Source: Heptranchias perlo
Taxonomy: Eukaryota
Length of the DNA: 64,000 nt
Assembly (NCBI RefSeq): GCF_035084215.1
Contig: NW_027139729.1
Location: 1,116,001-1,180,000 of the forward strand
Reading direction: 5' to 3'
Part shown: positions 14,208-48,649 of the stretch, piece after piece
How the letters are laid out: each line of letters opens with the position of its first letter
How positions within the stretch are numbered: the stretch's first letter is position 1
Notes under the pieces: generated by a model
What the model saw: the letters and a program-made list of their open reading frames with translations, nothing else
Told to the model about the DNA's origin: nothing
The model's database searches: none
Translations under genes and position numbers: made by a program

Positions 14208-14330
14208 TGCGCATGCGTGACTCAGCCCCGCCCCCAGCGCTGGCCGTTGGTGAGCAGAAGAGCGCATGCGCGCTGCCCTCCCCCAGCTCGGCCTGTGGGC
14301 GCCATTCCCTCAGTGAGCGGAAGAAGATGG
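14208..14330 (+). promoter_or_regulatory. CpG-rich promoter: 2x NRF1, GC box, ETS and YY1-like motifs (copy A)
   Basis: TGCGCATGCG, GCCCCGCCCC, GCGCATGCGC, CGGAAG and AAGATGG within 125 bp. Confidence 0.7.
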
Positions 14331-15155: not shown

Positions 15156-15242
15156 GCAAACCCTTGAAGGATCCATAATAAATGTGATGTTTCCTCCACC
15201 CGAGGCACAAGGAACAGTGCAGTCAGCTCCTTCTCACACACA
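15156..15242 (+). other. Putative 87-nt non-coding exon (copy A)
   Basis: TTTCTTTCTACAG acceptor and GTAAGT donor; same length in four units. Confidence 0.55.
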
Positions 15243-15659
15243 GTAAGTACATTATCACACACAGAGCACGGAGTCACAGACAGGTCAACAGTTCCACAGT
15301 CTCAGACAGCAGAAGTACTCAGTCCCACAATGATCCCAAGTTCCAGAGACACATTTTCAATCCACAGTCAAACAGAACAGGTGAGGCAGACACTGTTCCA
15401 TTTCCCCCGAACTCAGTCCCGCTGACAGGGAGATACAAAAATCCAAGTCCAAAATCACACTCTCAGATTGTCTATCTCACAAAGGGGCAACATTAGCCAT
15501 GAATTAAATACCAGATAGAAATCACACATGGTACCCGATTGAAAGGTAAAGAATGAATCCCAATAACGTTCCTCGAGATTCCTATTGAATTCGAGCCCAG
15601 AACTCTCACACACATGTGAGTTTAATACATGCAGTATCCATTCAAATAGTGTACCATTC

Positions 15660-20540: not shown

Positions 20541-21742
20541 TCTACTGGACGTAAGCGAGAACTGTAAAAGAGCGGAACAAATTCACATTATCTGTGGTGG
20601 TTACAGAAACAGGACAATGTGCAATGTGAGGAAAGTTTCTGTCTGTAACTTTTACTCTTCTATTTTAGCACATTTTGACAGTGAAACATGAAGACAATTG
20701 ATTAATAATAATTTTTTTGTTTCAATCATTCGATAGTTGTGAATTTGCCCCATTATATTTCACTGTACATTGCGCAGTGTTTCTCTCTGATTTCTTAGGA
20801 CACGATTTACATTGCTCCTCTACCCCATTTAGACTCTTATTTTCCATGCAGTATGTGGCCTCCTTATTCCCCGTAGCGAAATGTAGCATCTCACACCTTT
20901 CCATATTGAAATTCAATGGCCATTTACACGGCCGTTCTGCAAGTTTATTTTGTCCCAGTCTTCCTCAGTATTGACAATACCCCCGAAATCTATTTGAAGA
21001 ATTTAACAGAGTATTAGAAGTAGTGTTTGGTCAAACCAAATGTACTTGCAGCTCGTCTCCATTCCCAGTTTTTCTAAATCCCACCCGTGCAATATAATGT
21101 GAAGAATGAGTTTATCTTCTGTCCCTCTCTCATCTGTAAACTTCAATGACCCGGGGTTTGGGGACATCTACTGGCCGGAAGCAGAACTGCAACAGTTCGG
21201 AACAAATTGCTGAAACCGGACAATGTGCAGTGTGAGCGTGTTTGTGATTGGTGGCAGGTATTAAATCTGATTTTTTTAAACCCACCCATTAAACTTTAGT
21301 GTTTGTTATTGAACAGTAAACAGAGCCGGACAGTAAGGATGTGGGGAGTTATACAAAGAGCATCTATTGCAGGCATCAGGTGAGAAGTTTGAAGGACACA
21401 TTTTAAGCAGCGGCAGTTTTGCTTCGGTTGAACGCTTAATCCCAAGGTAGAGGGAAATAGAAATCTGATATGTGCAAAGGTCCCGTCCCCATCGGGTAGT
21501 CCCAATCATGGTTGGGTTGTGTCTGGATGTCACTAAATTGTTGTAAAACGGCCCAAGACAACTGGTGTGCAGAAGCTGAGTGCTGCAGTACTGCAGTGGA
21601 GTCAGACACTGACACTGTTTGTATCGGTGGTTTTCATTTGTGGATATTAAAATGATTATTAACAGAGAGATTCAATTGATCACTTTTGTATTTTCTACTT
21701 CACCTGTTCTTGAATTACAAGAGATACTTTTTCTTCCTACAG

Positions 21743-21829
21743 TCAAATCCATGAAGGACCCAGAATCAGTGTGATGTTTCCTCCACCCGAGGCACAAGGA
21801 ACAGTGCAGCCAGCTCCTTCTCACACACA
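21743..21829 (+). other. Putative 87-nt non-coding exon (copy B)
   Basis: TTCTTCCTACAG acceptor, GTATGT donor. Confidence 0.45.
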
Positions 21830-24728: not shown

Positions 24729-24779
24729 GTTCGGAACAAATTGCTGAAACCGGACAATGTGCAGTGTGAGCGTGTTTGT

Positions 24780-24935
24780 GATTGGTGGCAGATACTAAAT
24801 CTGATTGGATATCTGATGAAACCAATCAGAGAATGAAAGTAAATGTTATGTGTCATCACGCCCAATCGTCCAATCACAATCATTGCCTTCCCCCATCCCT
24901 CATTACCATAGGGCTGTGGGGCTGCCTATTTAATC
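24780..24935 (+). promoter_or_regulatory. H2B promoter (five CCAAT boxes, TATA-like CCTATTTAA)
   Basis: ATTGG/CCAAT at ~24781, 24804, 24822, 24862 and 24870; TATTTAA ~60 bp before the ATG. Confidence 0.7.
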
Positions 24936-24986: not shown

Positions 24987-25361
24987 ATGCCTGAGGACAA
25001 GAAAGCAGCTCCCAAGAAGGGCGCCAAGAAAACCTTGAGTAAAGCACCAGCCAAGGGCGGCAAGAAGCGGAGAAAGTCGAGGAAGGAGAGTTACTCCATC
25101 TACGTCTACAAAGTGATGAAGCAGGTTCACCCCGACACCGGCATCTCCTCCAAGGCCATGAGCATCATGAACTCCTTTGTGAACGATATTTTCGAGCGCA
25201 TCGCGAGTGAGGCTTCCCGCCTGGCCCATTATAATAAACGGCACACCATCAGCTCCCGGGAGATCCAGACCGCCGTGCGCCTGCTGCTGCCCGGGGAACT
25301 GGCCAAGCACGCCGTGTCGGAAGGGACAAAGGCGGTGACCAAGTACACCAGCTCCAAGTAA
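24987..25361 (+). CDS. H2B: Histone H2B, replication-dependent
   Basis: MPEDKK...[26 protein letters not shown]...AVTKYTSSK; the true ATG is at 24987. Confidence 0.98.
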
Positions 25362-25390
25362 AACTCCACAATGTACTGAAAAAAAACAAC

Positions 25391-25406
25391 GGCTCTTTTA
25401 AGAGCC
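25391..25406 (+). terminator. Histone 3' stem-loop (H2B)
   Basis: GGCTCTTTTAAGAGCC-ACCCA, followed by HDE GAAGGAGCTG. Confidence 0.95.
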
Positions 25407-26178
25407 ACCCACAACCTCTCTGAAGGAGCTGCATTTCCGATATATTTACATAGTATGTTTTTAATAGCGCGATATTATTCCAATCGAAAACTGATACTCT
25501 ACGCCGTTGAAATTTCTGACCCATAAACTGAACACGAGTTTCTGATCCGCTCCTTCCCATTCGCTTTGTTCTTAAAGCGTTACTATTCCGGCGACGAACA
25601 CACCCTGAATGACCCCTGAGCATTTCCATTTTCTCCATGAATTCAGTCTCCCCACATTAACAGCAACCCCACCCCTTGCAGTAACAAAGCGGAGTAGGGG
25701 CAGAATGAGAACTCCGTCCGGGTCCGTCTTTTCACAGAAGCACTCCCGGCCCTGTGAGAAGGGACCAATCGTGTCACTTTTATAAAGACTAAATTGAAAC
25801 GTGTCCCTTCACGGAATGCTGTGAATGGGGATTTCGTCCCGAACGGTACAGTTTGAAAGCGATGATAAAATTAGCGAAAGTTTAAAGCAGATTTTAAAAC
25901 AGCTCCAGCGATTGGTGACGGGTAGCGCTGAATAAGACAAGATAAAAAGAACGGGTTTAAAATCTTGTGCTCAGGGCGACATTGATCGAAATCCGGTCCT
26001 TTACTACACTGAAATTGGCGGGCTTTTTGAAATTCATCAAATTCCTGGTCTGACCGTTGAGGCCGGAAAATCCCGCCCTCTTCTGATTCCCAGCTATCTG
26101 ATTGGTTAATGAAATAGGCAAATGAGGTGTGTTAAAGAACAACCAATCAGATGACCTTTCAGTCTATAAGAAGGGTAA

Positions 26179-26619
<441 letters not shown>

Positions 26620-26649
26620 AGCGACAAAGACTTAATCTGATAACCCAAA

Positions 26650-26665
26650 GGCTCTTTTCAGAGCC
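26650..26665 (+). terminator. Histone 3' stem-loop (H2A)
   Basis: GGCTCTTTTCAGAGCC-ACCCA. Confidence 0.95.
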
Positions 26666-26788
26666 ACCCACTGTATTTATGAAAGTGCTGGTTACTGTCT
26701 GTAGGATCAGGAATTAATTTGATAAGGACTTGATTCCGATTCTAGAAACTAACAATAACTTGTTAAACACAAATGATCCATATCGGTC

Positions 26789-26825
26789 TGTTGCAGTACT
26801 CGCTTCCGGACCGCAGATGTCGCCA
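26789..26825 (+). promoter_or_regulatory. CTCF-like site with upstream module, between H2A and H3
   Basis: TGCAGTAC-TCGCTTCCGG-ACCGCAGATGTCGCCA; identical copy at 55290-55326. Confidence 0.55.
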
Positions 26826-27211
26826 ACCTCCAATAGATTGAAATTTGCAGTTTGTCTGGTGAATGAGACAAAATACCAGAACCGTCAGAATTGTTAACTG
26901 GGTGGGTGGGATGCAGAAATACCAGGGACGCTTGTTATTATTTACCGTCCCATCCTCGGACAAGTCTGCCTCGGTTTGTTATTTTACCCAGATGTATACA
27001 ACACATGCTGAATGTGCTGTTTATTGTATCAGCGATTGCTGAATTAAGAATGTGAGTGAAATTTGTGTTTGGATGTGAGTGAGGTATTTATTCTGTCCAT
27101 GTCCGTCTGAAATCAGCTGCCCCCCTTTATACATTTCCCATTTAAGCAAATTTCTCACGGCCCTGCCATTTCAACCCAGGAGATCACAGCTCTTTCCATC
27201 GCCGATTTGGT

Positions 27212-27227
27212 GGCTCTGAAAAGAGCC
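27212..27227 (-). terminator. Histone 3' stem-loop (H3)
   Basis: Minus strand GGCTCTTTTCAGAGCC, followed by HDE AAAGAGCTG. Confidence 0.95.
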
Positions 27228-27260
27228 TTTGTTGCACTTGGTGCTGAAGCCGGGTCGGGT

Positions 27261-27740
<480 letters not shown>

Positions 27741-28528
27741 TTATAAAGGGTCTAAGGGGATCCGCCCCTGGCCTGTGATTTGCTGACGACCAACACCCTA
27801 TCAGGGAGTGACCGTCCCGGGACTGTGATTGGCAGGTTTGAACCGAGCTCTGACAGTCAGACTGAAACGGCGGGAGGTATTGGGCCCCAATTGGCTGAGC
27901 TGAAATTAACCATCAATTTCAAAAAGCCCGCCAATTTCAGAGCGTAAAATAAGTTTCAAGAAAATCTCATTTCCCTCCAGCAATTTAAGAATCTCTCTCT
28001 TTATAATCTCCATTATTTCCTTCTCCTCAGCTCATATCTCAGGCTGTTTCACATTCAGGTTCATTCTCTGATCTGTCTGTAAACGGGCGGGAATAAAGCC
28101 CCGGTCATTGCTTTCCGGAACGGGACAAAGTCCAGCTTCAATTTCAAAAATCCCGCCAGTTCCGGCCCGGTGAACCGCTCCTCAAACAGAAACTTCACAT
28201 CGAACTGATAATTGAATGAGGGTAGGAAATAAAGAGCGAGCAGAGAGGACACAGCGGGAGAGGGAGTGAGGAGGGATTTTACTCTGAGCGGAGAATGTAA
28301 TGTCTGGGGAAAGACTCTGTATCACCGCCTGTTCATTTATACCGTGAAACCGGGAATTCCGCTCCTTCTCTCGGGATGGCCGAGAACCCCGGCCGTTGTT
28401 TCTGATCTCCCTGTATCGAGTGTTGGGGAATCTCCCCATACTAATTAAATATCAGAAACTGATTCCCCATCCCGAGATCTCTCCTCTCCCCGTTCCCAGG
28501 TCAGTGCTCTCTCTGTGAGGCGGTGGGT

Positions 28529-28544
28529 GGCTCTTAGAAGAGCC
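28529..28544 (-). terminator. Histone 3' stem-loop (H4)
   Basis: Minus strand GGCTCTTCTAAGAGCC-ACCCA. Confidence 0.95.
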
Positions 28545-28579
28545 TTTGTTTTGTGTCCGGTTTGAAAGTGTCGAGTTGT

Positions 28580-28900
<321 letters not shown>

Positions 28901-29716
28901 TCACTAAAATCACTGCTGAATGAATAACGAACTTATGCTCGTTCCGTTTTTATGCAGCCTGCACCGACCGGACTGAGAAAGAAAGAGGGTGAGACAGGGA
29001 GGGGAGGAGACAGAGTGAGATATTAAACAGGGAGGGGAGGAGACAGTCAGAGTGACGGATAGAGCGGAGAGCGGCCTCTGATCTTCCAGCTCCACCTCCA
29101 GCTTTCTCCGCCCGCCAATTTCAAACCGTTTATCGATAATTGAACCGAAACACAGCGCTCCGCACAAACCCTGACAGACTCGGGCTTCATATTCAAGGAT
29201 TTCCAGAAACCGGGAGCTTTTAAATAAGCCCCGTTACAATTAAGTCAGTAATATTCCTGCCTAAATACAATCCCTTCTATAACAAGTCAACCCGCCTCCT
29301 TCCATTTCAGTCCCAGACCCGATTCGATCTCCCCACACATCCCCTCCCAGACGGGTTCAGCAGTTTACAAACACTTTATTCCAGCTGATTTGGAGAATCT
29401 CATGTGTTGGGGTTTGAATTGTGATAGCGGCGGATCTCCGCCAGTTTTACCCTGTCACGGACTCTCGCCCTGAATCTGTGAGAAAAAATGAACTGGGACT
29501 GGAGCCGAACACACGCCAGTTCCAGTGAGGCCCGGCCCGGACATCCCTTTCTCTCTATTTTATTTCAGACAGTGGGGGTGGGGCGGGAACAGCGAATGTC
29601 AGCGAGTCACCAGGACCCTGGGTTTATTTGAAATGATTTCTGTCTGAAATCTGAGCCCGGCCCCGGGACAGGAATCATCCGATTCCGGGATCAGCTCTTT
29701 TCTGAGAGACGTGGGT

Positions 29717-29732
29717 GGCTCTGAGAAGAGCC
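29717..29732 (-). terminator. Histone 3' stem-loop (H1)
   Basis: Minus strand GGCTCTTCTCAGAGCC, followed by HDE AAAAGAGCTG. Confidence 0.95.
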
Positions 29733-29768
29733 GTTGGGTTCAGATGGTCACAAGTTGCACTTGATTTT

Positions 29769-30383
29769 TTATTTCTTTTTGCCCGCTGCTTTCTTAGGCT
29801 TTGCTGACTTCGGCTTGGGCTTGGCCCTCGGTTTTTCCACCTTCTTTGCCTTCGCCTTCACTGTCTTGGGGGTCTTGGGCTTCTTAGCCGCCGCTTTCTT
29901 CTTAATTGGTGATTTCGCCGCCTTTTTCGTGGTCGATTTCTTCGCCGCTGGTTTCTTGGCGGCTGATTTCTTGACCGCTGTTTTTTTGGCCGCTGGTTTC
30001 TTTCCGGGAGATTTCTTGGTCACTTGTTTCTTCACCTTCTTGACCACTTTTGCCTGGGTTTCCTTCTTAGCGACTCTGAAGGAGCCCGAGGCGCCCGTGC
30101 CCTTGATCTGCACCAGGGAGCCTTTTTCCACATTTCTCTTGATACTTAATTTGATCTGGGACCGGTGCTTCTCCACATCCAGGCCTTTGGTAGCCAGAAC
30201 CTTCTTTATCGCGGCCAGGGATATCCCCTTGCGATCCTTGCAATCCCCCACAATCTTGAGGATCTGTTCTCCCAACGGGGGACCGGTGGACTTGGGTCTG
30301 GGAACCGCCTTCTTCTTCTTGGGAGCCTTGGGTGGAGCGGCGGCGGCAGGAGGTGCCGTTTCGGCGGCTGCAGTGTCTGTCAT
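29769..30383 (-). CDS. H1: Linker histone H1 (204 aa)
   Basis: [12 protein letters not shown]..., globular domain [15 protein letters not shown]-rich tail; H1 AC-box AAACACA at 30528-30534 (minus strand). Confidence 0.96.
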
Positions 30384-32575
30384 GTCCGGGACTCTGTCGA
30401 AAATCTCTCTGACAGTCAGAGCTGGGTCAGAAATGAAACGAGAGGCGGCGGCACAGAGCAACTTAAAGGCACAGAGCGGACGGGGCGGAGACATCCTGCT
30501 GTCAGCTCCCGGCCCCTCCAGCCTCTCTGTGTTTCTCTCTCCTCTTAAACTCCCCGATTCCAATTCAAATCGGGCACTCCAGAGTCCCAGACTAGCCCCT
30601 TCCTATCTCTAACACCGGGATGTTTGCTGTCGAAAAACTTTCACCGGAATTAAAAGCACCAGTTTCGATTTAAACCCGTTTCATTGCTGCACTGATCGCG
30701 CTCTCTCACCCGATCGCTGACATGATCTCCGTTTTTCGGCTGAAATCTTGAATTGATCTGAAACTTTACCTTAAATTTCCACTTCGGAACTCGGCAGGGG
30801 AGGAGGGCGATCCTTTGACAGGGATTTTTTAAAATTTTACTCAAAAGGGACTCGGAAATCTGGCGATGAGACCGGCCACACAAACACAGTGACATTAATC
30901 TAACCCACCCGCCCCTTTAACACACTCTCTCTGACACACTGTTCACATCTTCACATTCACAGGACAAACTGTTCGCCAGATTGACAATTCCCGGGACAGG
31001 CTTTCCTCCCCGCTCGGCCTGTGCTGCAGATTCTCGGGGGTTAGTTGTAGTTTCCCAGCTCAGTAAATGTTAAACACTCTGAGGCCGGCGCTCCTCACAA
31101 TGTCTGGTCCCCAGTTTCAGGGACAGGAGTCAATCACAGCTGTGGTTGTGATTATCCATATCTGGTTTTACATTATTACATTGTCTGCACACAGAAATAT
31201 GTTTGGTTGAGGCGATAATACAAATAATCCGCTCTGGGCTCCTCCAGTCTCTCTGTCTTTCTCTCCCTCCTCCAAAACTGACTGACAGACAATAGTAACT
31301 GGTGTCCCATCCGTCCCATTCTAAACACCCAGAGACGGCCAGTTACTGAATAAATTCAACATTCATAGGCAGTCCAGTGTCAGACAGTTACAGGCTGTTT
31401 CTCTCCACCTTTCCTTACTCGACTGGAGACTGATAAATGCACCGTCAGACCGGCTCATATATAATAGAAGGGACAGTGACTGTCTCACCAACAGCACCGG
31501 AGGTCTGTTCACAGACACAGAATCAGTCTTTACCTTCCTACAGGGTGTTCATATTATGCTCAATGACACTATCCCGCTCTCATGTACAGCACTAGAGATA
31601 GAGAAATACAGACGGACAGATAAAGAGACAGACAGAGACAGGCAGACAGACAAAGTATCATTCTCACACTTCCTCTCAGTGTGTCCGTTTCACACTCAGC
31701 AAACAGTATCCCACCTTCGTGTACAGCGCCAGAGAGATACAGACAGGCAGAGTATCAGCCATACGCTTCCCATCAGTGTCTCTGTATCACGCTCAGCAGG
31801 ACTATTCCACCTTCATATGTTGTACAAAAGAGAGAGAGAAACTGACCTGCAATGTCCCGTTTTCACCCAGTAACAAATTGGAAAATTCTCCATTCCAATT
31901 GCCATTCCAAGCTGGAGTGACAGAAGATGCAGTCTCATCTCTCACTGATATTATTTCAGAGACAGACACATTATTAATCCCACTCTCAGGGACAGTGTCA
32001 CACATTTAACCCTCTGTTGCATGTTGTACCCTCTGCAATTTTGCAGCTCAGGGCCCTTCTGCATTTCTCTCAGTGACCGAGATTTTCACTCCGATTGAAA
32101 TAATCTGGGACTGTTGCCGTCAAATATTAATCCAACACGGTCCCAGCAAATACACCGACTCCCACTTTCCTCCCATGTTTCTCCAGGATTGGTTCGAGGA
32201 ATCCGGCCTCCCGTTACGGAGTCACAAGTTTCTTTATCAGTAAAGGGACCAAGAATGAACAGAACAAATTGGCTCATTTCACAGCCGCTCACTTTATCTC
32301 TGAAAGACTCTTTACCATCAAAAGATACCGAGAGAAACAGCAGGGATGGAAACATCTCGTTTAATAGTTAGAGATTGTAAAGTCAGTCTGGATTCCAGCG
32401 TTAGGCACTGGTGGAATCCCATCTGTTTTCCATTCTGGTGCCTGTTCCTGCACTGCCTGTGGACCCCATTCCCTCTGACCTTTCCCCCAGACCCACTTCC
32501 TTTGCTCAGACTCGGAAAAATTCCAATTGGGGAAAGTTTCCATCGATTTTTGTATTGGGAATTAAACCAGATATC

Positions 32576-32698
32576 TGCGCATGCGCGACGCAGCCCCGCC
32601 CCCAGTGCTGGATGTTGGTGAGCAGAAGAGCGCATGCGCGCTCCCCTCCCCCAGCTCGGCCTGTGGGCGCCATTCCCTCAGTGAGCGGAAGAAGATGG
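32576..32698 (+). promoter_or_regulatory. CpG-rich NRF1/Sp1/ETS/YY1-like promoter (copy C)
   Basis: Same motif set as 14208-14330. Confidence 0.7.
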
Positions 32699-33500
32699 TT
32701 TAAAACAGCCGGGAATGGAGAGATCACGGCCCCCGGGGGAAGGGAGCAAAGAGCAGCCTCGTTACAGCAGCTCATCGCTTCGGGACCGTGTCCGCAGATG
32801 GGCTCAGAGATCGGCATTGAGTCCGGGGGAAGGTCAGGGGGAGTCCGGGGGCTGTTTGTAAGAGGCGGAGTGGATCAGGAACTGGTCCCGGAACATGGAG
32901 TGAGCGGGGGAAAGGAGAGGTCATTCTCGGGCTGTGTGTGTCCAGGGTGTGTCCAGGGTAAGGGAGAGAGAATGGGAAGAACCTGATATTTAAAATCATT
33001 GCTGCTTTCTCTCCCCAAATCAGTCGTGAATGTTCCATGTTTAGTTCCAGTCTCACCCTGTTACTGGACAGTGAACAGTCAGGATGTGGGGAGTTATACA
33101 AACAGTATCTATTGCAGGCATCAAGTGAGAAGTGTGAAGGACACATTTTCAACAGCGGTTGTTTGGTTTGGGGTGAACGGTTAGTCCCATGGGAGAGGAG
33201 TTGAGAAACCTGACCTGTAGAAAGGTCCCTGCCCCATCGGGTAGTCCCATTCACTGATCAGTGCAGGGGTTGGGTTGTGTCTGGATGTCACTAAATTGTT
33301 TTAAAATCGTCCAACACACCTGGTGTGCAGAAGCTGAGTGCTGCAGTGCTGCAGTGGAGTCAGACATTGACACTGTTTCTATCACTGGTTTTCATTTGTG
33401 GATATTCAAAATGATCATTAACAGAGATATCAAACTGATCACTTTTGTATTTTCTACCTCACCTGTTCCTGAGTCACAAGAGATAATTTTCTTTCTACAG

Positions 33501-33587
33501 GCAAATCCTTGAAGGATCCAGAATAAATGTGATCTTTCCTCCACCCGAGGCACTGGAAACAGTGCAGCCAGCTCCTTCTCACACACA
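33501..33587 (+). other. Putative 87-nt non-coding exon (copy C)
   Basis: TTTTCTTTCTACAG acceptor, GTAAGT donor. Confidence 0.55.
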
Positions 33588-34029
33588 GTAAGTACATTAT
33601 CACTCACAGAGCACAGAGACACAGACAGGTCATCAGTTCCACAGTCTCAGACAGCAGAAGTAGTCAGTCCCACACTGATCTTAAATTCCAGAGACACATT
33701 TTCAATCCAACAGAGCAGGTGAAGTCGATACTGTTCCATTTCTCCCAAACTCAGTCCCGCTGACAGGGAAATACAAAAATCCCATTCAAAATCACACTCT
33801 CAGATTGAAAGGCACTGTGTCAATCTCACAATAGGGCAACATTAAATACCAGATAGAAATCACACATGGCACCCGATTGAAAGGCACAGAATGAATCCCA
33901 ATAATGTACCCTGAGATTCCAATTGAATACCACCCCACAACTCAAAAATGTGAGTTTAATACATGCAGTACCCATTCGATTAATGTATCATGAGGTACAA
34001 ACTGCAGACATGTCCAGAACTCATGTAGA

Positions 34030-37000
34030 GTATCAGACTGAGAAATGCTGTGACAGTGTAACCTGAGAAACAAATTAGAAACCAGTTTATAATACACTCA
34101 TAGTATGAGATGTAAAGATACAGTATCAATTCTATTAGTGCACACTGAGATACACATTACATACCAGTCCAAAAATCTCTCTCAATATTAGACTGAAAGA
34201 CACAGTATCGATTACAATAGAACAGACTGAGCTACACATTATACACCAATTCAAAAATCACTATATCAGTTTGTAATATATGTTATCATTCACAATAGTA
34301 CACAAAAAAAATTGATTTAATAGTAGTCCAAAAAGCACACAAATTATCTGATTAAAAACCTCCAGCACGAAATCCTAAAGTTTATCCATATTTATCAATA
34401 AAATGAGAAAAACTATTTAAACATGAAGATATTAAAGCTACAGTATTGAACACCGTAATGTAATGTGAGAAAATAATTACAGACAGATACAGAATAAATC
34501 TCGCACTCATGTATGGTACCACAGTTGACAGAGAATGAATCCCCCACTCTCATAATGTACCAGAAACTGGCAGATAAAGTATGAATCCCACACTCACACA
34601 GCATCAGAGACTGCATATATCGAATGAATCGCAAACTCAAACACACTACTGACAAGATACACAATGAATCCCACACAGTATCACGGACTGAGAGATACAA
34701 AATGAATCTCTCAGTCACCTACATTAGTGCAGGCTGAGTTACAAATTAGGGACCAGTCCACAAATCTCAGTGTCAGATTGAACGATACAGTACCAATTCC
34801 ATTAGTGCAGACTGAGCTGCATATTAAACACCAATACAAAAGACCAATACAGATTCAGACTGAAATATACAGTATTCCATTGATGCAGACTGAGCTGCAC
34901 ATTGTATATAAGTTCAAAAATGTCACCATATCAGTTTGGAAGATACACTAAATCACAATTGTGTTCACATTGATGCAGATTTAATCGTAGCCAAAAAGTG
35001 CAGTGATTCTCTGATTATAACCTACAGCATCACATTTTAAAGTATATAATTATCTACCACTTAAACACTGGGAAAAATTAGTTATACATTTATGTATTAA
35101 AGATACAGGTTTGAACGCCATGCTGTAAACTGAGATACAAATTAGATACAGATAAAGAATGAATCTCATACTCAGATCCAGTGCCAGAGACTGACATACA
35201 GAATGAATCCCTCACTCACACAATGTACCACTGACTGACAGATACAGAACGAATCCCACACTCACACACTGTAGCACAGACTGACAGATACAGTATATAT
35301 ATATATCACTCATATACAGTATCAGAGATTGATGGAAATGGAATGAATGTCTCACTCACATACAGCACCAGACACTGACAGTAATGGAATTAATCCCAAA
35401 TTCACACACGGTGCCAGAGACTGACAGGAACAGAATGAACCTCATTCAGATACAGTACAAGGGACTGACATATATAGAATGAATCCCACACTCACACAAA
35501 GTACCACAGACTGACAGAATCAGAATGAATCACTAAGTCAAATCACTGCAGACTGAGTTACACATAACATGCCAGTCCAAAAATCTTAGTGTCAGATTGA
35601 AAGATAATGTATCAATTTCATTAGTGCAGACTGAGCCAAACATTATATAGCAGTCCAACACTGTCAGACCTTATCAGACTCAAAGATACAACATCAATTC
35701 CATTAGCATGTACTGAGCCACATGTTACACACCAGTCCAAAAATCTCATACAGTAACAGACTGATAGATACATTATCAATTCTATTAGTGCAGGCTGAGC
35801 TATATATTACATTCCAGTCCAAAAATCTCACAGTGTCAGACTGAGATACAGAATTAATTCCATTATTATAGACTGAGCTACACATTATATACCAGTTAAA
35901 TAATTTCACCATGGACAGATTGAAAGGTACATTATCATTCACAACAGAGTTCAGAGATGAAGATGTAATACTACTCCAAAACTCACACACATTGTTTGAT
36001 TAAAGAAAATCCAAAAGTGTATCAATATTTACAAATTAAACACTTGATAAAAAACTGCATAGCCTTTAAAGTATTAAAGATATAGTTTCATATACAATAA
36101 TATAAACTGAAATAAGAATACAGAATGAATCCAGACTTGCACATTGTCTCATAGACTGAATTATAGAATGAAACCCAGACTGAGATAAATTAGCTGAGAC
36201 TGACAGATACAGAATGTATCCTAAACTCATATACAGTATCAGAGACTGACAGATACAGAATGAACCCCACATTTGCATGCAGCACCAGAGACAGACAGAA
36301 ACAGAATGAATCCCACACTCACATACAGTACCAGAGACAGACAGATACAGAATAAACCCCATACTCATGTACAGTACCAGATACAGACAGGTAAAGAATA
36401 AACCCCACACTTATATACAGCACCAGAGACAGACAGAAGCAGAATAAACCTGACATTCGCATACAGTACCCGTTACAGACCGATACAGAATAAACCCCAC
36501 ACACGTACAGTACCACAGACTGACAGGCACAGAATGAATCCCACAATCACACACAGTACCAGAGACTGACAGATACAGAATAACCCTCATTCATATACAG
36601 TACCAGAAACAGACAAATAAAGAATAAACCCCACACTCATTTGCAGTACCAGAGACAGACAGATACAGAATGAATCCCAAATTCACATACAGTACCAGAG
36701 ACTGACAGATACAGAATGAATCCCAAATTCACACAAGGTACCAGAGACTGACATATACTGAATAAACCCCACATTCACATACAGCACCAGAGACTGACAG
36801 AGACAGACAGATACAGAATGAATCCCAAATTCATACACAGTACCAGAGACAGACATATACTGAATAGACCCCACATTCAAACAGTACCAGAGACAGAGAG
36901 ACACAGAACAAAAAACACACTCATTTCCAGTATCAGAGACAGACAGATACTGAAAAACTCCAAACTCATGTACAGTGAGACTGACAGACACAGAATAAAC

Positions 37001-39270
37001 CCCACACAGGTACAGTACCACAGACTGACAGGCACAGAATGAATCCCACACTCACACAGTACCAGAGACTGACAGATGCAGAATAAACCCCACACTCATG
37101 TACAGTATCTGAGACTGACAGAAACAGAATAAACCCCACACTCACACACAGCACCAGAGACTGATAGGCACAGAATGAATCCCACACTCACACACAGTAC
37201 CAGAGACTGACAGATACAGAATAAACCCCACACTCATATGCAGCACCAGAGACTGACAGATGGAGAATAAACCCCACACTCACACACAGCACCAGAGACT
37301 GACAGATACAGTATATACCCCCCACTCATATGCAGCACCAGAGACTGACAGATAGAGAATAAACCCCACACTCATATGCAGCACCAGAGACAAACAGATA
37401 CAGTATATACCCCCCACTCATATGCAGCACCAGAGACTGACAGATACAGAATAAACCCCACACTCATATACAGTACCAGAGACTGACAGATACGGAATGT
37501 GTGAATTTGGGATTCACAGTATTGGAGACAGACAGATACAGAATAAAGCCCAACCTGTACCAGAGACAGATAAATGCAAAATAAACAACAAACACATCGA
37601 CAGTATCGGAGATAGATGGATGCAATGCAGAATAAATCCCACACTGACACACAGTACCAGAGACAGACATAGACAGAATAAACCCCACACTCATATACAG
37701 TACCAGAGACTGATAAATACAGAATAAACCCCACACTCACACACAGTACCAGAGACAGACAGATACAGAATGAAAGCTGCACTCACACACAGTACCAGAG
37801 ACAGACAGATACAGAATAAAACCTACACTCACACACAGTACCAGAGACTGACAGATACAGAATAAACCCCACACTCATATACAGTACCAGAGACTGACAG
37901 ATACGGAATGTGTGAATTTGGGATTCACAGTATCGGAGACAGACAGATGCAGAATAAACCCCAAACACATCTACAGTATCAGAGACACACAATTACAGAA
38001 TAAACCCCACACTGACACACAGTTCCAGAGACTGACAGATACAGAATAAACCTCACACTCATGTACAGTATCAGAGACTGACTTATACAGAATGAATCTT
38101 ATACTCACACACAGTACCAGAGACTGACAGATACAGAATAAAGCCCAACCTCATATACTGTACCAGAGACAGATAAATACAAAATAAACAACAAACACAT
38201 CGACAGTATCGGAGATAGATGGATGCAGAATAAATCCCACACTGACACACAGTACCAGAGACAGACATAGACAGAATAAACCCCACACTCACACACAGTA
38301 CCAGAGACAGACAGATACAGAATGAAAGCTGCACTCACACACAGTACCAGAGACAGACAGATACAGAATAAAACCTACACTCACACACAGTACCAGAGAC
38401 TGACAGATACAGAATATACCCCACACTCATATACAGTACCAGAGACTGACAGATACGGAATGTGTGAATTTGGGATTTACAGTATCGGAGACAGACAGAT
38501 ACAGAATAAACCCCAAACACATCTACAGTATCAGAGACACACAATTACAGAATAAACCCCACACTGACACACAGTTCCAGAGACTGACAGATACAGAATA
38601 AACCTCACACTCATGTACAGTATCAGAGACTGACTTATACAGAATGAATCTTATACTCACACACAGTACCAGAGACTGACAGATACAGAATAAAGCCCAA
38701 CCTCATATACTGTACCAGAGACAGATAAATACAAAATAAACAACAAACACATCGACAGTATCGGAGATAGATGGATGCAGAATAAATCCCACACTGACAC
38801 ACAGTACCAGAGACAGACATAGACAGAATAAACCCCACACTCATATACAGTACCAGAGACTGATAAATACAGAATAAACCCCACACTCACACACAGTACC
38901 AGAGACAGACAGATACAGAATGAAAGCTGCACTCACACACAGTACCAGAGACAGACAGATACAGAATAAAACCTACACTCACACACAGTACCAGAGACTG
39001 ACAGATACAGAATAAACCCCACACTCACACACAGTACCAGAGACAGACAGATACAGAATGAATCCAACACTCACACACAGTACCAGAGACAGACAGGCAC
39101 AGAATAAACCCCACACTCACACACAGTACCAGAGACAGACAGGCACAGAATAAACCCCACACTCATACACAGTACCAGAGACTGAAAAATACAGAATAAA
39201 CACCAAACGTTTGTACAGTATCAGAGACTGACAGATACAGAAGAAACCCCACAATCATGTAAAGTGCCAG
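34030..39270. repeat. Satellite region: ~82-bp/46-bp blocks, then a long 46-bp array (36110-39270)
   Basis: Visible periodicity; 552-bp higher-order repeat within about 37.7-39.0 kb. Confidence 0.92.
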
Positions 39271-39284
39271 GTAAAATTGTTTGG

Positions 39285-40855
39285 TTCGTGAGTGTCTGTA
39301 AATGAAGGAAACATGGTGTCTGGTAAGGGAGTGTCTATACATGAAGGAAAAACGGTGAAGGGTCAGGGAATATCTATAAATGAAAGAGAAATGGTGACAG
39401 GTCAGGGATTGTCCATGAATGAAGGTGAAATGGTTTCTGGTAAGGGAATATTATAAATGGGAGAAGACATGGTGACAGGTCAGGGAGTGTCTAAAAATGA
39501 AGGCGAAATGGTGACGGGTTACGGAGTGTCCATAAAGGAGGGAGAAATGGTGACAGGAGGCAGAGTCTGTAAATGATGGAGAAATCGTGACTGGTCAGGG
39601 GGTGTCTGTAAATGGAGGAGGAATGTTGACTGGTCCGGGAGTGTCTGTAAATGAAGGAGAATTGTTGACAGGTCAGGTCGTGTCCATATCTGAAGGAGAA
39701 ACAGTAATGGGTCAGGGAGCGTCTATTAATGAAGGGAAATGCTGACGGGTCAGGGAGAGTTTGTAAATGAAGGAGAAATGCTGAAGGGTCAGAGAGCGTC
39801 TATAAATGTAGGAGAAATTGTGTTTGATCAGAGAATGTCTGAAAATGAAGGCGAAATGGTGACTGGTCAGGGAGAGTCTGTAAATGAAGGAGGAATGGTG
39901 ATTGGTCCGGGAGTGTCTGTAAATGAAGGCGAAATGGTGACTGGTCAGGGGGTGTCTGTAAATGAAGGAGAAATGGTGACTGGTCAGGGGGTGTCTGTAA
40001 ATGAAGGAGGAATGGCGATTGGTCAGGGAGAGTCTGTAAATGAAGGAGGAATGGTGATTGGTCCGGGAGCGTCTGTAAATGAAGGCGAAATGGTGACTGG
40101 TCAGGGGGTGTCTGTAAATGAAGGAGAAATGGTGAGTGGTCAGGGGGTGTCTGTAAATGAAGGAGAAATGGTGACTGGTCAGGGGGTGTCTGTAAATGAA
40201 GGAGGAATGGTGATTGGTCAGGGGGTGTCTGTAAATGAAGAAGGAATGGTGATTGGTCCGGGAGTGCCTGTAAATGAAGGCGAAATGGTGACTGGTCAGG
40301 GGGTGTCTGTAAATGAAGGAGGAATGGTGATTGGTCCTGGAGTGTCTGTAAATGAAGCAGGAATGGTGATTGGTCCGGGAGTGTCTGTAAATGAAGCAGG
40401 AATGGTGATTGGTCAGGGGGTGTCTGTAAATGAAGGAGGAATGGTGATTGGTCAGGGGGTGTCTGTAACTGAAGGAGAAATGGTGATTGGTCAGGGGGTG
40501 TCTGTAAATGAAGGAGGAATGGTGATTGGTCAGGGGGTGTCTGTAAATGAAGGAGGAACGGTGATTGGTCCGGGAGTGTCTGTAAATGCAGGAGAATTGT
40601 TGACAGGTCAGGTCGTGTCGATATCTGAAGGACAAAAAGTGATGGCTCAGAGAGTGTCTATTAATGAAGGGACATGCTGACGGGTCAGGGAGAGTTTGCA
40701 AATGAAGGAGAAATGCTGAAGTGTCAGGGAGCGTCTATAAATGTAGGAGAAATTGTGTTTGATCAGGGAGTGTCTGAAAATGAAGGAGAAATTGTGATAG
40801 GTCAAGGAAAATCTTTAAATGAAGGAGAAATGGTGACTGGTCAGGGAGAGTCTGT
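39285..40855. repeat. 39-bp minisatellite (GGTCAGGGGGTGTCTGTAAATGAAGGAGAAATGGTGACT)n
   Basis: About 40 copies; 13-aa periodic ORFs on both strands. Confidence 0.95.
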
Positions 40856-40946
40856 CGCCAAAATTGGGAGATATCACAGATGGACGGCATACAGGCAGCT
40901 ATAGGGAGGGACATTGTGTGGAAATGAGGGGCAGAGCATATGCACA

Positions 40947-41160
40947 CAGTCAGAGTCAGCATATTCAGGAGAGGAGAGGGGAATCAGTGAGTGTAGAACT
41001 GAATCCAACCAGAGTCAGCAACTTCAGGGGAGGAGAGGGAGGGGAACCAGTGAGTGCAGAACTGAACCCAGTCAGAGTCAGCACCTTCAGGGGAGGAGAG
41101 GGAGGGGAACCACTGAGTGTAGAACTGAACCCAGTCACAGTCGGGATCTTCAGGAGAGAG
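40947..41160. repeat. ~60-bp tandem repeat (about 3.5 copies)
   Basis: CAGAGTCAGCA..TTCAGG.GAGGAGAGGG..GGAA.CAGTGAGTG.AGAACTGAA repeated. Confidence 0.8.
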
Positions 41161-41361
41161 AGAAAACTTAAATAGAAGGAAAAATGTTGGAGGTGGTGCG
41201 ATGGGTTTGGGTTTCAGCAGAGGGAGGAGGGTGAGTGTGTGGGACGGGGATTTACAGTTTGGGGGAATGAGCGGGAAGAATGTTCTATTGAAACTAGAAT
41301 TGCCTGTTCTGAATTTCTATCCTGTATTCACAGTGAGGACTTTTGTTATCTCCTTTTACAG

Positions 41362-42223
41362 GGTATTAGAAGGGGCGGATTTGCAGACGAGAAACTCAAA
41401 CCAAACATCACGTCAAGATCTGACTCCATTCACCAGCACCTGAAGATTATCGGCCTTAAAATGTCGGACAAATGTTGATCTGTTCTATCTGTGGGAAAAG
41501 ATTTCAAACATCACTGTAATTTGGAATAGCAGCGAGACACACACACCCGATTGAGAGTGTTCCAGTGCACTGACTGTGGGAAGAGCTTTCACCAGTTACA
41601 CAGCCTGAAAAAAAACATCACACCATTCACAGTGGGGAGAAACGAGACACGTGTTCTCTGTGCAGACGAGACTTCCACTGATCTCCAACGTGGAGAGACA
41701 TGAGGACACCCGCAACATGGAGAAACTGGGGAAATGTGGGGACTGTGGGAGGGGATTCAGTTACTCATCCCGGCTGGAAACTCATCGACGCAGACACACT
41801 GGGGAGAGGCCGTTCACCTGCTCCGTTTGTGGGAAGGGATTCACTCAGTCATCCCACCTCATTGAACATCAACTTGTTCACACTGATAAGAGACTTTTTA
41901 AATGTTCTGTCTGTGAGAAGAGCTTTAAAAGAAAAAGTGATCTGCTGACACACCAACGTACTCACACTGGGGAGACGCCGATCACCTGCTCCGTGTGTGG
42001 GAGTGGATTCACTCAATCTTCCCACCTCATTGAACATTAAATTGTTCACACTGATAAGTGTCTTTTTAAATGTTCTGTCTGTGAGAAAAGCTTTAAAAGT
42101 AAAAGTGATCTGCTGATACACCAACGGGTCCACACTGGGGAGAGGCCGTTCACCTGCTCTGTGTGTGGGAAGAGATTCACTCGATCATCCCACCTGCTGA
42201 GTCACCAGCGGGATCACATCTGA
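41362..42223 (+). pseudogene. C2H2 zinc-finger exon with a premature stop (six fingers from ATG 41717; TAA at 42038-42040)
   Basis: Acceptor TCCTTTTACAG ending at 41361; decayed fingers at 41480-41690; C-x2-C-x12-H-x3-H fingers with HTGERPF linkers; the frame continues past the TAA to TGA 42221-42223. Confidence 0.8.
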
Positions 42224-42420
42224 TTCCAGGAGTTGGATTCTGCTGTTATTGCTGCTGTTAATCACATCCAGGACTGAACCATGTTCATTCTGACAGTTGG
42301 GGGTTGTTTTTGATGTTAATAATCCCTTTAACTGGGCTGGAGTTTAGTATTCTGTCCAAGTGTCAAATGAATCAGCTTTCTTTCAAACAAAGTGTTTCTA
42401 GTCCTTCATATCTTGATGAT

Positions 42421-42915
42421 AAGAATCATAGAAGTTTACAACATGGAAACAGGCCCTTCGGCCCAAAATGTCCATGTCGCCCAGTTTATACCACTAAGCT
42501 AGTCCCAGATGCCTGCACTTGGTCCATATCCCTCTATACCCATCTTACCCATGTAACTGTCCAAATGCTTTTTAAAAGACAAATTTGTACCCGCCTCTAC
42601 TACTGCCTCTGGCAGCTCGTTCCAGACACTCACCACCCTTTGAGTGAAAAAATTGCCCCTCTGGACCCTTTTGTATCTCTCCCCTCTCACCTTAAAGCTA
42701 TGCGCCCTCGTTATAGACTCCCCTACCTTTGGGAATAGATTTTGACTATCTACCTTATCTATGCCCCTCATTATTTTATAGACTTCTGTAAGATCACCCC
42801 TAAACCTCCTACTCTCCAGGGAAAACAGTCTCAGTCTATCCAACCTCTCCCTATAAGTCAAACCATCAAGTCCCGGTAGCATCCTCGTAAATCTTTTCTG
42901 CACTCTTTCTAGTTT
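42421..42915 (-). mobile_element. CR1 LINE 3' fragment
   Basis: ORF QKRFTRMLPGL...WNELP...GYG. Confidence 0.85.
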
Positions 42916-43039
42916 GAGGACTTATGATGAAGTGTGTGGAATCCTGAGTTCCTTCACCTTTTCAAAAGATGGATCTACAAGATGTCCAAGTCTGACAGGA
43001 CAGAAAATTGTATTATATCACAGGGTCCACTTCAATCAG

Positions 43040-44305
43040 CCTGAGCAGATTTCCACTACACTTGTGTGAAAAAGAGCTTCCTAATTTCAATCCGAGACGC
43101 CCTAGCTCTAAATTTAAGTTTATGTCCTCTTGTTCTGGATTCCCCCACTGGAGAAAATAGTTTCTATTTCGACCCTATCGAGCCCCTTTATAATTTTAAA
43201 TCCCTGGATCAGATCACCCCTCAACCTTCTAAACTCAAGTGAATGGAAACCAAGTTTATCCAGCCCGAGTATCATTCTGGTGAATCTGCACTGTCCCCCC
43301 TCCAAGGCCAATATATCCTTGGTGAGGATCAGTACTCCAGAGGGGCTCTGACCAAGACTCTGTAGAACTGAAGCATCACTTCCTTCCCTTTGTATTCCAG
43401 CCCTGGAGATAAAGGCCATTAATCTGTGATTGCTTTTTGTATCTGTGCACTCGCCTTTAGTGATTTGTGTACATGGACACCCAAATCCCTTTGCTCCTCC
43501 ACCGTTCCCAATCTCTCACTTTAAGAAAATACTCCAATGTTTCCTTTTTGCATCCAAATTGAATGATCTCACTCTTCCTCACATTGAACTCCATCTGCCG
43601 CAGTTTGTCCATTCACTTAAACAGTCCCTTTGTAACTTCCTGCTCCCATCTACACCACTTACTGTGCCTCATAACTTTGTGTCATCTGGAAACTTGGATC
43701 TACAACTCTCTATTCCTTCATCCAATTTATTGATAAATATGGTGAAAAGCTGAGGCCCCAGTGCAGATCCCTGGGAACACCACTTGTCATATCCCACCAA
43801 TCAAAGAACTTTCCCTTTATCCCTACTCTCTTCTCCGACCTCCCAATCAATTACAACCCATGTCACAAGGTCACTTTCAATTGTGTGCATTTTATTTATT
43901 CTATTAATCTCTTGTGCTGAACCTTATCAAATGCCTTCTGGAAGTCCACATAGACAACATCCATAGACACTCCCCTGTCCACCTTGTTGGTTTCCTCAAC
44001 AAATCCAGCTAAATTAGTCAGACATGACCTACCCTTCACAAATCCAAGTTGACTCTCTTTGACCAGCTCAATTTGTGTCTCATGATAGATTTCAGTAAGT
44101 TCCCCACAACCGACGTTAAAATGACAGGTCTGTATTGTCCTGGTTTCTCCCTCCCTCCTTTTTTAAATAACGGAGTGACATTTTCAACATTTATATCCAA
44201 AGGCACAATTCCTGAGTCCAGAGAGCTTTGGGAAATTATAACTAATGCATCTCTAATTTCCCCAACTGTTTCCTTTAATACGATGGGGTGGATACCGTCA
44301 GGTCC
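43040..44305 (-). mobile_element. Degenerate CR1 LINE ORF2
   Basis: RT remnants (TTCCAGAAGGCATTTGATAAGGT on the minus strand; LEFRRLRGDLI). Confidence 0.85.
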
Positions 44306-45691: not shown

Positions 45692-46581
45692 CTATGATTT
45701 AACTAATGTAACAATTAGATTCAGTGGGTATTTCACCCCGTTCTTCAGCTCCTCTCTGAATTTAGTCTGGGTCACAGCATAAATACACGTGTTGGTGCAG
45801 GAACTGAGAAGTTGAAGCATGAATCCGGCTGACTCAATGTCACTGACCGTATAGAACTGGGCGTCTGTTATACGCAGAGAGATAAAATAAAAAACTTCTG
45901 CGCTCCATAACAATATAAAACTGCCTGATATACAGAAGAGTAAAATAATGGATTTCCTTCGGTTCTCCATCTCTGGATCATTGTGATTCTCTCCATTGCT
46001 GCGGCCCCGGAGTCCCCTGCGGACTCTATTGGCCGCTAAAACGTGCCTGGCGGTGAGAACATTGAACAGTAAAATCAGAATGAATGGGAGACAAGGCATT
46101 AATGCAAGATGAAACAAGTCAAACGCAGCAAATGTGGGTGAAGTGAAAAATGTAGGTTTGAAGACACAACCCCGGGGTACATTGTCCATTATATATTCCG
46201 GGTCTACTGCAAAGTACCAGGGAATGCTTAGTAAACAGCTCAGCGCACTCACCACCCCGATAACAACAGCCGCTGTTTTCTCGGTGCAATATTTTGTTTT
46301 CAGCTTCTGACAACAAATGGCCACAAATCGATCAAAGGTGAAAACCACTGTGAACCAGACAGAGGCCGCCGTGGCTGTTAGAATCAGGAAGAAAATGAAA
46401 CGACACACGGGGGTAATGGTCAAGAATGAAACTGGGAAATAAATATCAGCAATGCGCCACATTATGACATCAGTGATAACGACCAGGAGATCGGCCGCCG
46501 CCATTCCCACCAGGTAGCGAGTGATACATTTGGAGAGTCCGCACTTCCCTCGGGACAGGATCACAATCGCCACCAAGTTAA
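45692..46581 (-). CDS. GPR139/GPR142-like class A GPCR, exon 2
   Basis: Hydrophobic TM segments, AAADLL, TFDRFVAIC, SSCTNTCIY; acceptor TTTCTCTCTCTTACAG; phase matches exon 1. Confidence 0.85.
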
Positions 46582-48649
46582 CTGTAAGAGAGAGAAACAG
46601 AAGCAGAGAAATTACTGTTCAGACCTGGAGACAAAGCAGCAGTTTGAGAGGATCAGGGTGAAATTTCCAGCTTTGTTGCTGCATCAAACGGTGGGAACTG
46701 ATTTACTGACCTGGGCAGCGCTTTCGGACAGAGAAATGTTTTTAAATACAATGATCAATAAGGAATTGGGAAATTGATACAGAAAGTTAACAAAGTGAGC
46801 ATCGGATCCACTGGAGGAGCCGAGTGAGGGGGCAGTGCCGGTGGGAAAGTGGGAGGTGTTTTACTGAGTGGGAATCCAACGGGTGAAATCCAGATTTGGG
46901 CTCCTGATGGACGGGAAAGTGAGCGAGGGTCGGGAAGGTAAGGGGACAGGGGGAGGTGCTGCTGATTTGTTGCTCTGGGTTGAGAGAGCTGACAGGGGCC
47001 AGCTCAAAACGGGAAAGACCGAGATCCGAGTCGGTGAGTTTGAAACTTCGAATACGCATGGAAAAGGCAGCTGGAGGCGGAGCCAGTGATTGAAATTGGG
47101 AGGGAGACAAAGAAAATTGACACGTCGGAGGGGAGGGGAGTCAGGAGCAGTTGGTTTGGGAAAGAGGATAAACAGAAGCAACAGATTAGATGAGAGTGGG
47201 AGGAGAGGCGGGGATTCACAGGGAGAGACTGCAACAGAATGTTAGGGGAAATCAAGTCTACAGGTCTCAGTAACACAAAGCAATTTACAAATTCAACTTT
47301 TAACGTCCGTGGTTATTGGTGTCAGGGAACAGCTCGTTGGTTACATAATGTTTCAATAAATTTACTTTTCACATTCAATTGCAATTAAACTCGAATGTAT
47401 TCTTTAAGTTAGCCTCGTTCTTTATTGAACTAAGTTGACATATAGCTTCCAGAGTATAGTATCCTAATAAATCAATGCGATCAAGAAATCACTGATTTTA
47501 TTATTTAAATACATTTCAATTATGTTTATATATTCAATCAGTAAACAAGTAAAAGGAACATTCACATAAACAGACTGAGGACCTGATAGCGATAAACACA
47601 CCCGGAGAGAGTACAATAAAACTCTCACAATCTGACAACATCCTGATAACACTTTCAATTCACATTTCATCTTCATAATTATACTGGAAGTTTCAGCAGT
47701 TCATTCCGATGAATTATTCTCAACGCTGCCGTTCCCCCTCTCTCCACATCTCATTCTCTTTGTTTGTGTGACTTTCTCTGTCTCTTTCTCTCCCGTCCCT
47801 TCTCCACCTCCCTTCTCGTTTTCCTTCTCAGTCGCGTTCTCGATCGTTCCTCTCTGTCTCTCCGCACTCTCTCTACTCTCTTTCTCAATGTCGCTTTTCA
47901 CACCCGAGTAAATCCTAACATCCTGCGCCTGCTTTCTCTTCACCAGCCCCGTGTTCCAACGATCCTATTCTTAATGTCAGTTTGTTCAATGGTGAAGCCT
48001 CTGTGAACAGTTTAATGTTTCTACAGATCATTCAAGTCTCCACCTGTTCACCTACACTGTTCACTTCATCTACAATGTAAGGAATAAAGAGAATCGAATG
48101 CCTCTTCCAGACACACCTCACAATAATTGAAATTCCTTCTCCTGAATTACAAAGTACAGCGTTAGATGGCGGCATTGTTCAATTAACAAAACGCCAACAT
48201 CACCGCTGCTGCAAAAAATCTACAGATAAATAGAAGGGCTCATGATTCCAACAGATAAAGTGCAAACTGATACAAAATAAGCTCAAAACATTGCATTTTA
48301 CAGTGAATTCATCGACAGTGAAGCAGAGAATGAGATGTGAAAGAATCAGCAGCAAACTCAGTTCAGTAACCAGAACTCTGGAGCTTCTTCAGATACACAC
48401 ACAATGAAATAATATTTCATAAGAGTGATAACTAATAAATACATTGAAATCCCAGTTAAACTGAACCATGTTATTGTGGGGGGAGGACATTGCGCTGCCT
48501 CCTTGTAACACTGAGACCGTGAGCTGTCTCATTATCAATCACTGAAAACACATTGATGAAAAAAATTCCAGGTCAGATTAGTTCCACAACATGAAACTGT
48601 TAACAGCTCCTGATGGTCTGATACCAGCTCTTAGCCCTGACATCTGATT

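Follow-up and report, generated by a model that had tools for sequence, protein, structure and literature searches.

The subject of this work is a spliced unit in the histone repeat of the shark Heptranchias perlo. It lies in a stretch of 64,000 nucleotides (the window; C1562:1116001-1180000 of a 3.25-Gb assembly) that contains two histone quintets, one of them without H4, satellites, and pieces of long interspersed nuclear elements (LINEs). Replication-dependent histone repeats are usually regarded as five intronless genes plus spacer. On the plus strand of the window, a CpG promoter (32576-32700) is followed by a non-coding first exon with an approximate 5' end (E1, 32640-32832), a cassette exon (E1b, 33072-33124) and a non-coding exon of 87 nucleotides (E2, 33501-33587). 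This arrangement is referred to as the leader. Further downstream on the same strand, beyond an intron filled with satellites, stands a terminal exon that codes for C2H2 zinc fingers (ZNF exon, 41362-42223), to which the leader was found joined.

The promoter bears two NRF1-like sites, a GC box, an ETS-like and a YY1-like motif, where the names NRF1, ETS and YY1 are our presumed assignments. The initial annotation of this DNA had placed the same motifs here; all are present at the positions it claimed and are conserved across 41 genomic copies to differing degrees. The NRF1-like sequence GCGCATGCGC occurs at 32577 and at 32630. The site at 32630 is retained in all 41 copies, and the one at 32577 has a C to T exchange at its final base in 33 of them. 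The GC box comprises 32594-32604, the ETS-like GCGGAAG at 32685 is found in 41/41 copies, and the YY1-like AAGATGG at 32692 is complete as a 9-mer in 35/41. The spacer between both NRF1-like sites (32604-32624) is variable; the flanking motifs are fixed. Because the H1 start codon is 2.2 kb away, the leader promoter is not a compact bidirectional promoter shared with H1. The first ATG, at 32695, opens the minimal frame ATG-GTT-TAA, as had been annotated. Directly upstream of the NRF1-like sites, a low-diversity stretch (32515-32541) contains two GGAAA...TTCC near-palindromes, which we take to be Rel/NFAT-like.

Splicing was deduced from assembled contigs of public runs, whose RNA nature is a guess. 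Among the contigs aligned to 32400-33800, those of the runs X1 and X4 represent one sample of organism A; their variants agree with the majority alleles of the H. perlo genome copies. X5 is from organism B, and X6 is a small fish metagenome. The joints considered are the 15 listed of 18, with 46 further loose ends beyond those listed. Contigs pile up on 32635-32832 and 33501-33587, with a roughly thousand-fold drop in the intron preceding E2: the depth in X1 is 151,000-245,000 across the bins of E1, 339,000 at E2, and 94 in this intron. The 5' end of E1 was placed by the rise in depth at 32635-32682. GT-AG joints lead from 32680, 32832, 32899 and about 33124, each to 33501. The donor AAG|GTCAGG at 32833, which the initial annotation had put forward, is thus used in the joint 32832 to 33501, but its GT is present in only 24 of 43 copies, and the alternative donors after 32680, 32899 and 32957 had been overlooked. 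The GT at 32900 is retained in 41 of 43 copies; the donor after 32957 was seen as loose contig ends.

For the cassette exon E1b, the donor is given by a joint, and the acceptor near 33072 was placed by means of paralogue contigs. The predicted donor GTGAGA at 33125 is borne out by the joints from about 33124 to 33501, and its GT is found in 56 of 62 genomic copies. A predicted junction from 32832 to about 33024 is not among the listed joints; instead, contigs display the joints 33120/33121 to 33498 (two letters fit both sides) and 32827 to 33075. E2 shows the peak of contig depth and has joints on both sides. Its AG and GT are retained in 63 of 63 genomic copies, and only 7% of the dinucleotide positions of the block are equally fixed, in the comparison of splice dinucleotides with their flanks that had been suggested. 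The annotated set of four 87-nucleotide exons with AG/GT ends was recovered at 15156-15242, 21743-21829, 33501-33587 and 61830-61916. However, the window holds only three promoters, and not four units: the exon at 21743 has no promoter and belongs to the unit that begins at 14267.

The joint from 33587 to 41362, likewise predicted, is displayed by five X1 contigs that run from the end of E2 into 27 letters identical to 41363-41389. A strong acceptor precedes 41362. The 27-letter contig end carries a marker base of the ZNF clade described below and has 45 exact matches in the genome, all on C1456 and C1562. An exact search for the joined form of E2 and ZNF exon yielded no match in the assembly. 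GT-AG joints in putative RNA, together with a joined form that is not in the DNA, are what is expected of a spliced RNA polymerase II (Pol II) unit, here in one sample. Moreover, all 23 related ZNF exons have an E2 upstream.

The intron between E2 and the ZNF exon begins with the 46-bp and 82-bp satellites of the histone spacer (35148-39270, plus strand). Its segment 36196-39270 contains 42 AATAAA in sense and none in antisense orientation, where base shuffles give an expectation of 6.4; the repeat copies are not independent. The number of AATAAA per intron from E2 to ZNF exon is 20-44, and some spacers of unfused units have up to 41. Due to these many sense AATAAA in fused and unfused copies, the 46-bp satellite may be the usual termination zone of the leader. 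Spliced ZNF transcripts would then have to traverse this possible termination zone. Neither AATAAA nor ATTAAA was found in 42224-43500.

The ZNF exon has a decayed 5' part and an open reading frame (ORF) that starts with the ATG at 41717. The statement of the initial annotation that no credible protein is encoded does not hold for this last exon. The ORF matches PF00096 with an E-value of 3.7e-25; in the Pfam search it matched finger families only, with no KRAB or effector domain, and the frames of E1 and E2 matched no family. In the window copy, a premature TAA at 42038-42040 leaves 107 amino acids and three of six fingers; the normal stop of the family is at 42223. A sample of 27 fused copies, 19 chosen by likeness to the window and eight unselected, contains 12 full-length copies with 4-15 fingers and 15 that are truncated or lack a start. 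Among the unselected ones, 6/8 are intact. The dN/dS value relative to the native sister genes is 0.36-0.39, blurred by finger shuffling. Two 13-finger fused copies differ by one silent and four replacement changes, which is uninformative. The best listed protein match is from Heterodontus francisci, with 61% identity. In the spliced model, seven ATGs precede the ZNF start, and the protein output is therefore predicted to be low. One of these ATGs opens a 47-codon frame that ends 61 nucleotides before the last junction; by general rules, poor translation and a partial degradation of the RNA are predicted. Taken together, the family appears to be young and to evolve by birth and death, with the window copy as a truncated member and some members probably working.

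The distribution of the leader in the genome was assessed by exact k-mer matches, which give lower bounds of copy numbers. A 37-mer of E1 has 580 exact matches over many contigs, and a 34-mer of H3 has 187; the leader unit roughly equals or exceeds the histone genes in number. In 400 kb around listed E1 matches on C2, C23, C49, C284, C360 and C402, all 21 E1 adjoin a whole or partial histone gene and none is fused. C284, for example, carries a plain array E1>E2>satellite>H2B>H2A>H3<H4<H1< without ZNF. The 664 kb examined on C1562 and C1456 hold 20 E1, 35 E2, nine ZNF acceptors and 10-14 copies of every histone gene, and a master unit E1>E2>E2'>[quintet] E1>E2>ZNF recurs, E2' being a duplicate of E2. 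Eight of these 20 E1 lead to a ZNF exon and two to other histone pieces; the remaining ten lead to a duplicate E2, usually followed by H2B. The leader is a general element of the histone repeat without a fixed last exon and is not part of a ZNF gene.

These counts bear on the broader proposals of the initial annotation. Each unit was said to carry a sixth gene, possibly ending in the ZNF exon; a spliced unit does exist, but only the 8/20 promoters reach a ZNF exon, and on the other contigs it is 0/21. The question whether the unit is a ZNF 5' untranslated region (UTR) or a long non-coding RNA (lncRNA) resolves as both, with a general leader and a derived, local ZNF end. Similarly, only on C1456 and C1562 have histone genes, ZNF exons and satellites been amplified jointly as one module; elsewhere the leader is unfused.

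At 39254-39290, the site of the fusion, the 46-bp satellite of the histone spacer gives way to a 39-bp ZNF satellite. This joint is shared by the 27 distinct fused copies and occurs in no native stretch; it has 67 exact matches, 47 on C1456 and 20 on C1562, and none elsewhere. The following 39-bp and 63-bp satellites (39290-41163, plus strand) are those of the native ZNF intron, as on C23 and C1275 they are likewise found ahead of native ZNF exons. The alignment of the window to the closest native ZNF gene, which is located on C1275, begins at 39282. A looser pattern of the ZNF acceptor has 177 matches genome-wide, and from this list 18 native exons on C2, C23, C413 and C1275 were drawn, with 9-32 kb of upstream DNA examined for each. 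None of the 18 has an upstream E1 or E2 on the same strand, and for 17 of them a CpG island lies no more than 8 kb away. Comparison of E1 with 18 native islands gave scores of 21-33, where the maxima of shuffles were 25-33; two of the 18 exceeded their own shuffles, both via one 19-nucleotide match. In the fused intron the CpG island is gone: there are 0-12 CpG per 500 nucleotides, compared to 28 at E1.

A tree was calculated from the first 430 nucleotides of the ZNF exon (440 columns, midpoint root), which included 16 of 19 native rows; three short ones were omitted. All 27 fused copies form one clade (support 97/96), whose sister group consists of two native C1275 genes (98/97). Thus, E1 is found without ZNF exons, ZNF exons are found without E1, the native islands cannot be aligned to E1, and a definable joint is common to the descendants. 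This pattern is that of promoter capture, and the ZNF end is likely a derived, local and late acquisition that arose by a single rearrangement with subsequent amplification. A second, independent fusion was considered at 17.69 Mb of C23 and rejected, as the native island of that ZNF gene is still in place, immediately ahead of the 39-bp satellite. A block consisting of a native ZNF gene, a tRNA-Gly gene, a divergent H2A piece and E1 recurs on C1275 and C23 (14.55 and 17.69 Mb). It is a plausible substrate of the fusion, because it puts the parent ZNF gene and the leader back to back. Native ZNF genes of the H. perlo genome have tRNA genes at their flanks; on C23 the two kinds are interspersed, with 2-7 tRNA genes per 30 kb. 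The native ZNF exons all carry about 350 nucleotides of decayed finger-like sequence before the putative MEKPWKC start, and many (e.g. on C23) have an ACG in place of its ATG.

The most conserved part of the leader is E1. In 20 unselected copies, the nucleotide diversity (pi) of 32681-32832 is 0.0013. In the same arrays, pi is 0.023-0.038 at third positions and 0.003-0.011 at first and second positions of the histone genes, 0.087 in E2 and 0.035-0.108 in the introns. On other contigs, E1 has a pi of 0.028 versus 0.084-0.138 for E2 and introns. The histone spacer hence holds a spliced unit that is less variable than histone silent sites. With a spacer that varies between motifs that are fixed, selection on DNA elements is a better fit than a simple conversion tract would be. 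The fold of E1 does not exceed that of shuffles (z -0.05, no stable structure), and an Rfam search returned no family and two sub-threshold hits on the minus strand; a structured non-coding or spliced-leader RNA was rejected for these reasons. Two candidate peptides were rejected as main product as well. A 47-amino-acid frame from 32715 has a stop at 32739 in organism B and no match in Pfam or in a database search that covered only proteins of at least 71 amino acids. A 67-amino-acid frame from 32798 across E1, E2 and ZNF exon is shifted by existing 86-nucleotide variants of E2 and has no matches in these searches either. The leader is likely non-coding. A search for the E1 pattern in metagenome contigs gave no match, which is uninformative.

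The best explanation, which we regard as probable, is a chimeric gene: the histone-repeat leader is spliced onto a promoter-swapped C2H2 exon, and the fusion was multiplied together with the histone block. A Pol II promoter of housekeeping type would send transcription away from H1 and into the 46-bp satellite, and the strong donor of E2 would take any downstream acceptor, be it that of a duplicate E2, a LINE fragment or a ZNF exon. A break that joined two satellite arrays would have put this promoter in place of the native ZNF one. By unequal crossing-over, the fusion would subsequently have reached at least 67 copies, and its finger array would have been reshuffled to 4-15 fingers. The putative role of the leader is to keep the spacer open and to bound the histone genes against satellite chromatin. 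Such a function in cis is a tentative proposal, somewhat short of an even chance. A more far-reaching version is unlikely as a whole; it would have a selected Pol II leader of several hundred copies organise the histone locus in cis, with upstream copies transcribing across quintets as introns and the leader serving as a gene nursery that has captured and diversified a ZNF family, the expression of which would now be tied to the histone locus.

An opposite order of events, in which E1 and E2 are the ancestral ZNF 5' UTR and the copies without a ZNF exon, hundreds in number, are headless remnants carried along with the histone genes, would fit with the 23 of 23 close ZNF copies that have an upstream E2, with the NRF1-like sites that native ZNF islands also bear, and with a presumed resemblance of the promoter motifs to those of vertebrate ZNF genes. 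It is nevertheless very improbable, as the fused copies nest within ZNF genes having other 5' ends, E1 cannot be aligned to the 18 native islands beyond chance, and the fusion is limited to two contigs, whereas E1 is present on many. The low pi of E1 relative to histone third positions, the high contig depth and the presence of the leader in organism B might rather indicate that its RNA or a small peptide is a selected, trans-acting lncRNA product of the histone locus and the ZNF end noise. We consider this quite unlikely, given a fold no better than that of shuffles, the missing Rfam match, several donors, no fixed last exon, a variable E2 and the interrupted 47-amino-acid frame.

It is less easy to dismiss, if still doubtful, that the leader is a functionless passenger, i.e. 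an orphan promoter at an open CpG island whose copies have been homogenised by gene conversion, with RNA and fusion as by-products. More than half of the sampled fused copies are truncated, acceptors are used promiscuously, and the pertinent part of one report describes recombination near promoters in some vertebrates (PMC5519329). On the other hand, the spacer between the NRF1-like sites varies within an invariant block, the splice sites of E2 are fixed in 63/63 copies, and 6/8 unselected fused copies are intact. The passenger explanation departs from the chimeric gene on function alone; the anatomy is identical. Because of the invariance of E1, the fixed motifs and the lack of a fold or Rfam match, we favour a role in cis, with a by-product ZNF family that has some working members.

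Several points weigh against the chimeric gene and its proposed history. The RNA support of the ZNF joint comes from contigs of one run and one sample of guessed RNA status. At 98% likeness this joint is unlisted in all four runs, where most other known joints were lost too. Since 18 copies have an identical exon start, the contigs do not reveal whether they stem from the copy in the window. The native CpG islands are putative promoters only, the order of events depends on a midpoint-rooted tree of 440 columns, and the near-invariance of E1 is not accounted for by a passive passenger.

The window contains two more promoters. The upstream unit (14267-21829, plus strand) consists of E1 (14267-14472), E2 (15156-15242), E1b' (21317-21379) and E2' (21743-21829); it heads into H2B and has no ZNF exon of its own. 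Contig joints of the types E2 to E2' and E2 to E1b' were seen, and on C49 contigs join E2 to an acceptor 0.9 kb before H2B, in a fragment that is LINE-like by our reading of its sequence. The final 30 nucleotides of E2 are common to all E2 classes, and contigs of 31-mers cannot phase upstream and downstream copies. A second alignment at 98% likeness, made to phase E2' to E2 across the quintet, listed no such joints and lost most known ones. The segment 21200-21260, which precedes the promoterless pair 21317-21829, copies the H2B upstream region 24733-24800 and marks the point at which the internal duplication that gave rise to E2' was joined. Five more E2' exons form a tandem array of 5.1-5.2 kb units behind one promoter (C1456:2018014-2044136); each has the acceptor gAG, not cAG. 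The third promoter with its E1 and E2 occupies 60964-61916 (plus strand). Its ZNF exon lies 3.8 kb past the end of the window and is intact, with 364 amino acids and 13 fingers.

Between two of the promoters lies a histone quintet (24987-30383) with H2B and H2A on the plus strand and H3, H4 and H1 on the minus strand; stem-loops are present at four of five genes. In the other quintet, which has no H4 match, the H2B gene of the region 51930-53981 is cut near its 3' end by an ORF on the minus strand (52608-53981) that we would class, by its sequence, as reverse-transcriptase/GIY-YIG type. Between both histone blocks, an intronless ORF of 308 codons (45692-46618, minus strand) is of the seven-helix receptor type, presumably GPR139-like.

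If the chimeric gene is real, promoter capture has seeded a new multi-copy family of transcription factors. Gene birth and decay within a tandem array could then be followed in a case that is dated and countable, and whether spacer transcription shields histone genes from satellite chromatin could be tested directly. Spliced genes would then also lie hidden in the histone arrays of shark annotations.

A literature search, with subscription papers and bioRxiv supplements outside its reach, retrieved no account of the leader or of the fusion, and PMC10547256 contains no shark passage. The chondrichthyan finger-only C2H2 genes that are named 'gastrula zinc finger XlCGF-like' or 'ZNF239-like' at NCBI are similar in having a single coding exon, tandem fingers and only zf-C2H2 domains; their native members have their own CpG island, whereas the fused clade uses the histone-repeat leader. 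Histone and tRNA genes are co-located on chr28 of the red stingray (bioRxiv 2025.06.08.657570) and in the extended MHC, and ZNF and tRNA genes on zebrafish Chr4R (PMC11075544). In stingray and zebrafish, multi-copy families are grouped, as are the native ZNF and tRNA genes of H. perlo, but the relevant sections describe co-location only and no shared transcription unit. According to the pertinent part of PMC11602149, the histone loci of newt and Xenopus show read-through transcription into satellite DNA. The interspersion of histone clusters with transcribed satellite is alike. However, initiation there is at histone promoters, whereas the shark unit has a separate promoter, its own spliced exons and a protein-coding end; its contig depth starts at E1, which is 2.2 kb distant from H1 and on the other strand, with the histone genes outside the aligned region. 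The closest parallel in type is human HYDIN2, which PMC5345166 describes as a chimeric gene that arose by promoter capture in segmental duplications. In both cases, part of a gene lacks its ancestral promoter, and its transcription starts at a new one on the far side of a rearrangement joint, with varied splicing and altered ORFs. In the shark, the donor promoter is a histone-repeat element of several hundred copies, and the fusion itself has been amplified at least 67-fold in histone arrays.

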